From: a virus
Taxonomy: Duplodnaviria > Heunggongvirae > Uroviricota > Caudoviricetes
Virus record (IMG/VR): IMGVR_UViG_2778261346_000008
Span: 1-11,570 of that record
Reading direction: 5' to 3' (one strand)
Length of the DNA stretch: 11,570 bases
Under the pieces are notes generated by a model that was not told the origin of the DNA, did not search any database, and was given only the letters and a program-made list of their open reading frames with translations. Below are positions 4,517 to 7,271 of the stretch, one piece after another (within the stretch, counting starts at the first letter, position 1; each line of letters starts with the position of its first letter). A program made the translations under genes and the position numbers.

Positions 4517-5038
4517 ATGGGAATAACTAAAGAACGATTGTTGGAAATAGCAAACCTTAGTGATTGGGCATTAAGTGATGAGAGAATTGTTTCTCCTCAT
4601 GCTTATGAGTCAGTTACAAGTATAGAAATAACAACAATGGCTAGAATGCTGCTTGGTTATTTCAAAATAGAAAATAAAAAACAGATGGATAGTAATGTTG
4701 ATATATGTGAGATTTTAGACGATTGGGGGGCTTGGGTTGTGGCTGGTAATAGTTCTATTGATTGGCAGGAAATAGCTGATAAATATAAAAATGTTGTTCC
4801 TCATGGTAAAAAATCACGTCGTCAGTGCAGCAATGATGAAGGGCGAATTATTGACATTAGTATCCTTATGTTAGAAAGATATAAGCAACAAGAATATGAG
4901 TTAATTGTTGCTCATTTCGTGATTGGTTTATCTCTTCGTGCTATTGCAAAGCAACAAGGATGTTCAGATGGAACAATTCGTAAAAGATTGCAAAAAGCCT
5001 TAGGTTTTTTGACTGGATATATAGCAATTACCAGTTAA
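4517..5038 (+). CDS. sigma-70 region-4-like HTH protein, putative transcriptional regulator (173 aa from ATG 4517)
   Basis: Track ORF starts at GTG 4505; ATG 4517 has GGTGGAG about 6 nt upstream. C-terminus ELIVAHFVIGLSLRAIAKQQGCSDGTIRKRLQKALGFL resembles ECF-sigma/LuxR region-4 HTH; AT-rich codon usage matches the island. Confidence 0.6.
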   Translation: MGITKERLLEIANLSDWALSDERIVSPHAYESVTSIEITTMARMLLGYFKIENKKQMDSNVDICEILDDWGAWVVAGNSSIDWQEIADKYKNVVPHGKKSRRQCSNDEGRIIDISILMLERYKQQEYELIVAHFVIGLSLRAIAKQQGCSDGTIRKRLQKALGFLTGYIAITS

Positions 5039-5676
5039 GAGTCAGCGGTTTTTTTACCAGTGTAATGGTATAAGGATACTCCCATGTGTCTTACATGATA
5101 TGGAAGCGCTGTTGCTGGATGCTTTGTGATACTCTTAAAGCGGAGGGGAGAGCCTTCCGCTTCAATTTCTGCGTCCGAAACGGTCGTAGAGAAAAATTCT
5201 TTCCATTCATTGAATTTTACTGCTGATTTGTCAGACTTTATATAAATTAGAATTCCTCCATGATCGTCACGTGACGTACCCGTGCCGTAACGTTCGGTTA
5301 GCTGAATCCAGCCATTATGAATAGATTTGGGGCCTCTCCATAATTTTGCTTCACCGATCCATTCGAATTTTCCGAATTGATGTTTAACTAATAAATCAAC
5401 GTGACCGCCATGTTGAGTATCATGTTCAACATCATAAAACCTACCTTTCAGGAAATTTTTGATCGACGCTGTTAGCTCGTCCTCTCCCCACTTAGCATCT
5501 TGATAGAAGTGTTTGTCATTTTCTAAATTCTGAATAGCGTCGTCTAAATCTTCATAGAGTTGCTTTACAAAAATATTTTTGTCTGCAGCTAATTTTCTTT
5601 GAACCATTCCCCTAAATTCAGGATCCATTCTAATTAATGATTGAAGGTCTGCAGTACAGATGTTTACATCACTCAT
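5035..5676 (-). CDS. PD-(D/E)xK nuclease-like protein (213 aa), third gene of island operon
   Basis: ATG at 5676..5674 with GGAGAG 5 nt upstream, overlapping the stop of the upstream gene by 8 bp (ATGAGTGA). Motif E84, hVD94LLV, 14 residues, EWIGE109AK111. Track start at 5739 has no RBS. Confidence 0.55.
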   Translation of the reverse strand: MSDVNICTADLQSLIRMDPEFRGMVQRKLAADKNIFVKQLYEDLDDAIQNLENDKHFYQDAKWGEDELTASIKNFLKGRFYDVEHDTQHGGHVDLLVKHQFGKFEWIGEAKLWRGPKSIHNGWIQLTERYGTGTSRDDHGGILIYIKSDKSAVKFNEWKEFFSTTVSDAEIEAEGSPLRFKSITKHPATALPYHVRHMGVSLYHYTGKKTADS

Positions 5677-6097
5677 GCAGACTCTCCAAAAGACTCGAAG
5701 GAGTAAAGTATGGATAAAGATACTGGCTAAAATTATCAACCAATTCGCCAGTTTCTGGATGGTAAAAACTTCCTGTGTCTAAAGCATAGGAAATAAGATC
5801 ATCTTCAACTGGTATTGGTTCTTCCGTTAAATTATCAATGTATTGAAAATGCATATCCAATAGATGTGCTTTATAGCTAGATAAATAATCAGTTGCTTTT
5901 ATTAGCAGGATATAGTCATCTTTCGTATCAGTTAGATAGGTTAAACCATTGATAAGGGTTTTGTATGTAAAGTGATTGATATTTTTAGCATCTTTACTAA
6001 CCAGAAAAAGAAAAAGATCACGACACACACTGCGAACAGGATCATTAAAATCCTGCTCTATTTGCGTGATAATGTCGTGATATATACTCTTTTTCAT
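5669..6097 (-). CDS. hypothetical acidic protein (142 aa), middle gene of island operon
   Basis: ATG 6097..6095 overlaps the stop of the upstream gene (ATGA); weak own RBS, consistent with translational coupling; no recognisable motif. Confidence 0.6.
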   Translation of the reverse strand: MKKSIYHDIITQIEQDFNDPVRSVCRDLFLFLVSKDAKNINHFTYKTLINGLTYLTDTKDDYILLIKATDYLSSYKAHLLDMHFQYIDNLTEEPIPVEDDLISYALDTGSFYHPETGELVDNFSQYLYPYFTPSSLLESLHE

Positions 6098-7185
6098 TTA
6101 TGGCCTGATGATCTCGCTCTTCTTTTCTCTTCACAGGACTTAACAGAATCCAATATTTTTTCAACAATAAATATAATCGAATCAATGTTGTTACAGTTCT
6201 TCGCAATTGCTTCATGCAACCTAATTCTAGGATTATCAAGCATTGTCCTTTTTCCTGGTAATATTAACTCTACTGATAAAATATGTGAAGAACTTTGTGG
6301 TAAATCCCAAATTTTTCCCAACTTAAACTTTGTCAATATTGGGCTTGCGGACTCTCCACTATGATGGTAAACATCTTGACGCAAACACTTTTGACTTGGT
6401 TTGAGTTTTAAAGAACTTGTATTGCCATCTGAGGTGATAAAAGATACATGAGAAATTCTGCCATCTACTTTTTCGTAAAGATCTTGTATTGAACCAAATA
6501 ATTCAAGAGGATTGTTTAAAATAACGCCAGCTTCTTTTTTTATAAATTTAGCCACAAGGTATTGTTGAGGCTGTGATTCACTTCTTGGAAGGATAGATAA
6601 ATCAATCGTAAGAATTAATATTTTTTCTGCAGGCATTAGCATGATGGTATTAAAGCATTGCGTGACTTGGCGTGTTTTGCATTTTATTTCTCCACCATTA
6701 GCACGTAATTCCATACCCGCATCGCTAAGATGTGTTGGGTCAAGCTCTATCACTTCAGTGTAATACGCTTTGGATAAAAAAACAGCAGTGTCAATTTGTT
6801 TATCACGAATGATATCTTGACGTAGTTCAGCAAAATGCAGCTCAGTATCAGCAACTAACAGCTCCTCTCTGGATAAAGGAGTTGGGTATTTTTCTGAGAA
6901 GGGGCTATTGTCCTTTTTCTGATTTGTGAAAATTGTTTGTAATTTTGCTACGTCTTCATCGGTGATTCTATAAATAGAAAGTAATCGATTCCCGCTAAAA
7001 ATTAAACCTTTCCAGAAATCGTCGATTCTGTCTTTTAGGTCGGGATTATGCTGAACTACACTATTTACACGTTCAATAAAAAGGGGTAATCCTTGGGCCG
7101 TTACACCCAGTGATGAACCAAGAAGCTTACGGGTGTTGCGCCAGCCAAAGCGTGAATTGATGTTTTTTACTGTTTGCTCAAGCAT
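6094..7185 (-). CDS. hypothetical large protein (363 aa), first gene of island operon
   Basis: ATG 7185..7183 has AAGGAAG 5 nt upstream; track GTG start at 7191 would abut the RBS. No P-loop (LPGKRT is not GxxxxGK[ST]); no HTH, nuclease or NTase motif I can defend. Confidence 0.65.
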   Translation of the reverse strand: MLEQTVKNINSRFGWRNTRKLLGSSLGVTAQGLPLFIERVNSVVQHNPDLKDRIDDFWKGLIFSGNRLLSIYRITDEDVAKLQTIFTNQKKDNSPFSEKYPTPLSREELLVADTELHFAELRQDIIRDKQIDTAVFLSKAYYTEVIELDPTHLSDAGMELRANGGEIKCKTRQVTQCFNTIMLMPAEKILILTIDLSILPRSESQPQQYLVAKFIKKEAGVILNNPLELFGSIQDLYEKVDGRISHVSFITSDGNTSSLKLKPSQKCLRQDVYHHSGESASPILTKFKLGKIWDLPQSSSHILSVELILPGKRTMLDNPRIRLHEAIAKNCNNIDSIIFIVEKILDSVKSCEEKRRARSSGHK

Positions 7186-7229
7186 TAACACTTCCTTAAT
7201 TTTCCCTTAACAATTTAGGGTGCTAAACT

Positions 7230-7271
7230 TTTTTGCGCAGTTTACATAAAAAAATAGTGCGTACGCAAAAA
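7230..7271. promoter_or_regulatory. inverted repeat / candidate operator upstream of island operon
   Basis: TTTTTGCG (7230-7237) and CGCAAAAA (7264-7271) are reverse complements; internal palindrome GCGTACGC at 7259-7266; possible minus-strand promoter TTGCGT (7268..7263), 18 nt, TAAACT (7244..7239). Confidence 0.35.

Follow-up and report, generated by a model that had tools for sequence, protein, structure and literature searches.

Among described systems, Rst_3HP ('hp+hp+hp') is a validated three-gene defence system whose proteins have no predicted domains and which belongs to a P2 prophage hotspot (Rousset et al. 2022, PMC9122126). Here we report on three adjacent genes, termed A, B and C, in an 11,570-nt stretch of viral DNA (Caudoviricetes; IMG/VR record IMGVR_UViG_2778261346_000008, positions 1 to 11,570, the whole of which is referred to as the window), which most likely form a mobile, self-contained conflict unit directed against phages or other mobile elements and carried as cargo expressed in the lysogen. 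The A-B-C cassette is like Rst_3HP in being a three-gene prophage-hotspot cassette of unannotated proteins, but the proteins of Rst_3HP (333, 359 and 227 aa) are unrelated by hidden Markov model (HMM) and BLAST comparison and come from a different hotspot and a different phage family; identity with this system was tried and rejected, with HMM scores of about 0 and BLAST matches limited to 30-residue chance matches. OLD-family and Gabija-type ATPase-nuclease genes are likewise nuclease-based cargo of mobile elements, and in a sister phage an OLD-like ABC-ATPase is found in the very slot that A-B-C occupies elsewhere, whereas A-B-C contains no P-loop, ATPase or TOPRIM domain. Three-component toxin-antitoxin (TA) modules, e.g., omega-epsilon-zeta, share with the cassette a layout of three co-transcribed genes, the gene of a small acidic protein lying ahead of, and overlapping, that of a potentially toxic enzyme, yet there is no sequence or profile relationship to them, and the first gene of the cassette encodes a large RdgC-fold protein and not a small repressor.

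At the level of the single proteins, A resembles RdgC (PF04381; PDB 2owl) and phage 'RdgC / exonuclease' proteins in predicted fold only, without detectable sequence relationship, and differs from RdgC in carrying four additional helices at its N-terminus and a long helix at its C-terminus; moreover, RdgC is encoded on the chromosome by a gene standing alone, while B and C always follow A. By predicted fold, C is nearest to BamHI/OkrAI/BstYI/BglII, to McrC, to HamA of Hachiman and to the CdiA-CT(EC869) DNase toxins, with identities of 7-14%, but unlike these nucleases it falls into no Pfam restriction-enzyme family, has a helical N-terminal region of its own and comes with two obligatory partners, while the cassette lacks a Type II methyltransferase, a McrB-type GTPase, a HamB helicase and a CdiI-type immunity gene. 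We favour, at a probability of about 0.55, a role in defence or abortive infection in which C is the nuclease effector, and place far less weight on the specific roles proposed below for A and B. This reading is drawn from the coupling of the three genes, the purifying selection acting on them, the catalytic set of C, the fold of A, the constant linkage, the defence-type contexts and the AT-rich, patchy nature of the cargo, and also from the observation that the same slot in sister phages holds an OLD/Gabija-like ABC-ATPase and other AT-rich cargo.

A, B and C are produced as one unit via translational coupling. Direct reading of the sequence shows that A and B share the overlap ATGA at 6097-6094 and that B and C overlap by 8 nt (ATGAGTGA at 5676-5669), exactly as claimed in the initial annotation of this DNA, which had described three overlapping minus-strand genes (363, 142 and 213 aa) and a ribosome-binding site before the first of them, the latter being AAGGAAG at 7197-7191. 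An open frame of 363 codons would arise by chance with a probability of ~1e-11 (our own arithmetic, with ~7% of random codons being stops at 36% GC), so the reading frame of A is non-random, and dN/dS values of 0.03-0.29 for A, B and C against homologues for which dS is unsaturated point to purifying selection. The tight spacing is kept in homologous loci, where B and C overlap in most cases and A and B overlap or lie no more than ~30 nt apart. With GC contents of 0.36 (A), 0.33 (B) and 0.39 (C) against 0.48-0.51 in the flanks, the AT-rich island that had been proposed for the operon is borne out for the three genes (33-39% GC), although it extends beyond them to take in the antiterminator gene Q as well (0.345).

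On the basis of sequence searches, A, B and C appear to belong to no described sequence family, and no PADLOC v2.0.0 system matches. Scans against Pfam, NCBIfam and PADLOC v2.0.0 (2023) gave no meaningful match for any of the three, and matches to Stealth_CR2, Cas8b_C, GntH and SspB in these family-library scans were rejected as chance level. This agrees with the earlier statement that A and B carry no assignable motif and that the operon matches no known defence family, and the profile scan that had been suggested as a check returned no confident match placing A, B and C in a characterised system. In PHROGs the proteins fall into three families, all of 'unknown function', and profile searches of PDB sequences with A, B and C gave nothing real. 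Likewise, neither 60 diverse, distant members of the A family nor 10 B or C proteins from distant loci had a meaningful match in PADLOC-DB v2.0.0. Kiwa, considered through an RdgC-like link to KwaB, was rejected, as there was no textual support for it and A matches no KwaB model. A literature search, in which some 2025 screens lay outside the scope, yielded no publication describing the cassette, its accessions, its PHROGs or an RdgC-like defence component, and the accessions of the cassette are absent from the DefensePredictor supplements.

Protein C is, to judge from its sequence and predicted model, a putative nuclease of restriction-endonuclease fold with an intact catalytic set. The model comprises a helical N-terminal region followed by a BamHI-like PD-(D/E)xK restriction-endonuclease core of alpha-beta-beta-beta-alpha-beta topology, in which the catalytic D...(D/E)-x-K residues lie on strands 2 and 3 and are accompanied by an upstream acidic residue. 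E65, D94, E109, A110, K111 and Q125 are invariant in 39 C sequences with identities down to 27%, i.e., the metal-binding and catalytic set is fully conserved, and the PD-(D/E)xK-like motif noticed beforehand in the last gene is thereby substantiated by invariant residues and by fold. Curated families do not capture the protein: the window protein has no Pfam match, three of the 39 members give weak PDDEXK_9 matches (best E 0.0098), and PADLOC gave one weak match, to PDC-S54 (E 0.0016), over the motif. Matches of C to Rab GTPases among PDB sequences (E ~0.008) were discarded, as they fall on the C-terminal part, which is non-catalytic, and are at odds with the predicted fold.

A nuclease of this fold could also act in a conventional sub-case of defence, a restriction complex without methyltransferase, either Type IV-like and modification-dependent or Type II-like with accessory specificity subunits, which would cleave incoming DNA according to its sequence or modification and not by sensing DNA structures. 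No methyltransferase was found in the cassette, nor adjoining it in the annotated 20-kb region or in the other contexts inspected; in the Salmonella phages, Dam genes lie ~2.6 kb from the cassette, in the phage early region. A methyltransferase being part of the cassette in no locus is the Type IV pattern. However, there is no McrB-like NTPase partner, and no modified-base reader of the SRA, YTH or DUF262/DUF1524 (GmrSD) type is recognisable in A or B. In addition, the 213-aa C protein is predicted to have its helical N-terminal region in place of the DNA-recognition elements of BamHI, and restriction enzymes do not usually show a conserved dependence on two further proteins. We regard such a restriction complex as unlikely.

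For protein A, a model with a pLDDT of 84 was obtained, whose closest match was RdgC in two structure libraries; in one of these, BFVD, the best matches were phage RdgC-like proteins. In the model, four N-terminal helices (residues 1-63) precede an alpha/beta core of two lobes, which has the RdgC-like fold, and the protein ends in a long C-terminal helix. Structure prediction with fold search, another check that had been put forward at the outset, thus returned an RdgC-like fold for A and a BamHI-like restriction-endonuclease fold for C. The resemblance of A to the RdgC structure is loose (TM-score 0.39, which is low, with a high rmsd), alignment of the A family profile with E. coli RdgC by hhalign gave a probability of 0.4% and hence no homology, and neither PF04381 nor any other Pfam family matched the A protein of the window or 60 diverse A members. 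With the A profile, a complete HMMER run against 1.84 billion cluster representatives (clusters at 50% identity) retrieved 499 clusters at E<=1e-3, nearly all of which are 335-390 aa long; A therefore does not occur as a domain within larger proteins. The most conserved stretch spans residues 241-294 (window 6337-6462; pattern DGR..S..F.TSDGN...L.P...CLR.D.YHH.GE.ASP.LTK.KLGK.WD) and includes R269, H274, G277 and W293. The sole low-confidence loop of the model, residues 267-282, lies inside this stretch, and because it is conserved yet does not fold alone in the model, it suggests a functional loop that is ordered only with a partner and may contact that partner or DNA.

Protein B is acidic in nine out of nine loci computed (pI 4.5-5.3) and can be aligned across all lineages (16 homologues from independent loci), with C25, T44, Y71-L, L80, an HP-x-x-G-E motif (P114, G117) and F131-x-P133 conserved. 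It gave no significant match in Pfam, PADLOC or PDB sequences; a match to the 'transcription factor' 9r2z (E 0.64) was not significant and was set aside. The position of B brings in a different explanation, namely that A-B-C is a tripartite TA or addiction module that stabilises its carrier element, with C as toxin, B as antitoxin and A as regulator or third part, and with phage protection as a side effect. The layout of a Type II TA module, a small gene directly upstream of and coupled to a putative toxin gene, is present here with its 8-nt overlap, and in most loci B lies upstream of C with an overlap of 4-25 nt (in a few the two abut or are a few nt apart), the usual antitoxin-toxin order, with B small and acidic in every locus computed. 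Modules of the hok/sok, BrnTA and HipA types adjoin the cassette. Two IMG/VR contigs, in which gene A is split into two open reading frames (ORFs) while B and C are intact (L025 5485-6581; L038 6487-7583), would likewise fit a restraint of C by B and not by A. These split copies may be due to sequencing errors, which weakens the argument taken from them; otherwise they would be natural A-null copies, and C would be tolerated without A. Further, A is the largest component, strictly co-conserved, under purifying selection and represented by ~500 clusters, which is more than one would expect of a dispensable regulator, and no known toxin or antitoxin family was matched. Many prophage TA modules also serve as abortive-infection systems, so an addiction module, which we consider possible but doubtful, overlaps with a defence role.

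Returning to defence, support comes also from the conservation and distribution of the cassette. The order A-B-C is kept in every untruncated locus examined (~60), with identities of A from 100% down to ~20%, and when the retrieved loci, 41 IMG/VR viral contigs among them, were all scanned locally with HMMs, each uncut contig showed A-B-C in order. Co-occurrence and gene order, for which the initial annotation had asked for comparison with other genomes, are therefore kept across very distant homologues and in many mobile-element contexts. Hosts include Enterobacterales, Vibrio and Shewanella, to which metagenomes are added, and settings range from several phage types and integrative islands to plain chromosome (Table 1); this taxonomic breadth rests on protein searches and contig look-ups, the contig scan with close alignment having given one locus. 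We counted as typical of defence cargo the lambdoid Q-to-lysis junction, the different phage type in Yersinia and the integrase or resolvase islets of Vibrio and Shewanella, and, among neighbouring genes, HipA, a Type ISP restriction enzyme, BrnTA, gop-beta-cII-like genes and TniQ. The spread is patchy, with the window allele present in 14 of 5426 complete E. coli genomes at 99.4-100% identity, among them O145 RM9154-C1 and enteropathogenic E. coli (EPEC) E2348/69, and all 14 copies are annotated as three hypothetical proteins. Beyond these, the cassette is found in other Shiga toxin-producing E. coli (STEC) besides O145 and in Salmonella Typhimurium prophages. A separate observation concerns a cyanobacterial-like context beside BrnT/BrnA (L062 532-2804; L063 582-2800), in which two genes (286 or 268 + 109 aa) stand where A would be expected, with a B-like gene (135 aa) and C (226 aa) after them, possibly a four-gene variant.

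In the lambdoid phages, a defined slot where Q meets the late region accommodates several cargos that can replace one another, A-B-C among them; this is a known place for lambdoid-phage morons such as stx. Alignment of nine upstream regions, otherwise unalignable, revealed a common element of ~45 nt located ~80-120 nt upstream of A, which is the outer edge of the slot; the inner edge is the 3' end of Q, the gap between the 3' ends of C and Q being -24 to +5 nt in all enterobacterial lambdoid loci with intact Q. In an exact-pattern scan the element was present in 29 IMG/VR contigs, and 17 of the 20 with Q in view carry Q but not the A-B-C cassette. Instead, their Q-to-element interval of 1.15-2.0 kb is filled with other AT-rich genes, which is what identifies A-B-C as interchangeable, and these genes run on the strand that A-B-C would have and start ~60 nt from the element. 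The slot agrees with an operational definition of a defence hotspot, under which conserved flanks enclose a variable, interchangeable set of genes and some of the alternatives are known defence genes, although the recognisably defence-like alternative is one only, the OLD-like ATPase; the 313 + 153 aa pair and the 338-aa gene are further uncharacterised cargo candidates. This also qualifies what had been said of a palindrome-bearing region upstream of the operon. The palindrome TGCGTACGCA is indeed there, as is an 8-nt inverted repeat (7230-7237 / 7264-7271), but the palindrome-bearing element is slot backbone and not the cassette's own, since it occurs in Q phages with other cargo. The element could be a promoter or operator shared by the cargos, or part of the Q-dependent late promoter/qut region read the other way; neither inspection by eye nor a promoter scanner gave a convincing sigma-70 assignment within it on either strand.

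The window itself belongs to a Rac-like prophage, as can be seen in the annotated 100%-identical copy of E. coli O145 RM9154-C1 (racR, ydaT, dicB), and the placement of the operon as cargo in a lambdoid prophage beside hok, now specified as hokD, proved right. The 'regulator' described opposite to it is likewise present and is the late antiterminator Q, which marks a boundary of the slot and does not evidently regulate the cassette. The hok/sok locus starts only ~180 nt from the start codon of A, which leaves little room for a cassette promoter. Beyond the slot, the window has hok/sok and a second nin-like block with its own antiterminator (Table 1) in place of lysis genes, and for this reason it looks as if the AT-rich module of Q and cargo had been inserted by recombination into the Rac-like prophage, upstream of the latter's own nin/late-regulator block; the PF06530 Q gene is annotated as frameshifted in RM9154-C1. 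Elsewhere in the window, a full-length copy of the gammaproteobacterial small RNA STnc100 was detected by Rfam at 11158-11344 (plus strand, 115 bits), and the annotated copy contains a TerB-family pseudogene with an internal stop at ~10626-10988 (plus strand), followed by a DUF3927 ORF.

Table 1 Features of the window, A-B-C loci elsewhere (sizes given as A/B/C) and alternative cargo of the slot.
Feature	Sequence	Positions	Strand	Details
Gene A	window	6094-7185	minus	363 aa from ATG at 7185; in-frame GTG at 7191; pI 8.8
Gene B	window	5669-6097	minus	142 aa; acidic, pI 4.6; start overlaps A stop (ATGA)
Gene C	window	5035-5676	minus	213 aa; start overlaps B end (ATGAGTGA); stop overlaps convergent Q stop (TTAA)
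Shine-Dalgarno-like AAGGAAG	window	7191-7197	minus	5 nt before A ATG; AAGGA core 7 nt before ATG; read from sequence
Conserved element, ~45 nt	window	7254-7299	minus	consensus ACCACTCTTAnCAnnTTACGATAnTTTTTGCGGACCGCACTAA; window version includes palindrome TGCGTACGCA at 7258-7267
Antiterminator Q gene	window	4505-5038	plus	PF06530, Pfam E 3e-31; convergent with C; stop overlaps C stop
sok RNA family	window	7362-7537	plus	Rfam, 113.7 bits
hokD coding sequence	window	7532-7687	plus	after sok; beyond A upstream region
Second antiterminator	window	9568-10389		273-aa 'antitermination protein'; after RusA; in nin-like block
A-B-C	L002-4, Salmonella Typhimurium prophages			365/140/211 aa; between Q and holin
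A-B-C	L012-14, second E. coli lineage			365/140/211 aa; between Q and holin
A-B-C	L009-10, Yersinia			360/144/210 aa; different phage type
A-B-C	L005-6, Vibrio parahaemolyticus			351/151/224 aa; integrase islet adjoining rpoD
A-B-C	L064, Shewanella			365/147/209 aa; between resolvase and integrase-like gene
A-B-C	L007-8, metagenomic phage			407/126/240 aa; between Mor-domain and pRha-domain genes, near HipA
A-B-C	L015-16, metagenomic contig			385/129/222 aa; after Xre-type HTH gene
A-B-C	L017, A at ~20% identity			365/140/230 aa; beside Type ISP restriction enzyme
A-B-C	L019, A at ~20% identity			354/144/219 aa; short contig
A-B-C	L095-96, NCBI assembly			354/145/247 aa; among housekeeping genes
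A-B-C	L097, sequencing-run assembly (Logan)			365/138/208 aa; beside gop-beta-cII-like genes, MbcA/ParS-like gene, TniQ
Alternative cargo, pair of 313(317) + 153(149) aa	L066; L089	1968-3380; 4905-6326		small protein looks membrane-embedded (weak DUF4064)
Alternative cargo, single 338-aa protein	L068	8570-9586		without match
Alternative cargo, 672-aa OLD/Gabija/PARIS-like ABC-ATPase	L084	2703-4721		PADLOC ATPase-Toprim_I-B 5e-15, AriA 3e-14; Pfam AAA_21

In one more alternative, the cassette would be a DNA-metabolism module serving the phage's own lytic growth, with the RdgC-like protein modulating host RecA or recombination next to a structure-specific nuclease and its small partner, in analogy to recombination or anti-RecBCD functions of phages. 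According to the title of PDB 2owl, RdgC binds DNA and is associated with recombination, RdgC-like proteins exist in phage genomes and supply the best BFVD matches of A, and recombination enzymes occur among the PD-(D/E)xK nucleases. In the window as in the other lambdoid loci, the cassette nevertheless runs against the flanking phage operons, being on the other strand, and a tblastn search of 50,697 deposited phage genomes found A absent at >25% identity, with two weak Acinetobacter matches only. Moreover, the cassette is found in non-phage islets and plain chromosome as well, sister phages swap it for unrelated cargo including the OLD-like ATPase, and the closest folds to C are those of restriction enzymes and of defence or toxin nucleases, not of recombinases. 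Taken together, a role in lytic growth seems very improbable.

Several points weigh against a defence function. We infer it from genomic context and from the fold of the effector, and no PADLOC v2.0.0 model matched, so there is no tie to a validated system. Some copies are surrounded by housekeeping genes, no marker of a mobile element lying within 8 kb of them, and the evidence from neighbouring genes is anecdotal and not a statistical enrichment.

If A-B-C acts in defence, the cassette would be transcribed in the lysogen, in the direction leading away from the late genes, by way of a promoter adjacent to the conserved element. A may bind DNA in the manner of RdgC, as a ring-shaped dimer on duplex DNA, and could serve as the sensor or targeting subunit for invading DNA, recognising linear ends or replication or recombination intermediates. 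B, made just before C from overlapping codons, would either restrain C or link it to A as long as A is not engaged, and C, as the putative DNA-cutting effector, would then destroy the invader or the infected cell. Tentatively, and at odds well below those given to defence in general, the cassettes might represent a new immune family, found in Gammaproteobacteria and further afield (~500 clusters at 50% identity), in which an RdgC-fold clamp or sensor licenses a BamHI-like nuclease under the control of an acidic gatekeeper. Were this so, the RdgC fold would for the first time be connected with immunity, and the cassette would provide an NTPase-free discrimination of self from non-self without a methyltransferase.

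In conclusion, the cassette is unusual in combining two components that fall in no described family with a predicted restriction-type nuclease lacking both methyltransferase and NTPase, and if it protects against phages, it would constitute a new and fairly common three-protein architecture of immunity, for which the manner in which the host chromosome is spared would become a real mechanistic question. Its presence in clinically relevant strains bears on the host range available to phage therapy and on competition between prophages. Regardless of the function of the cassette, the slot between Q and the 45-nt element can be mined for further uncharacterised cargo.

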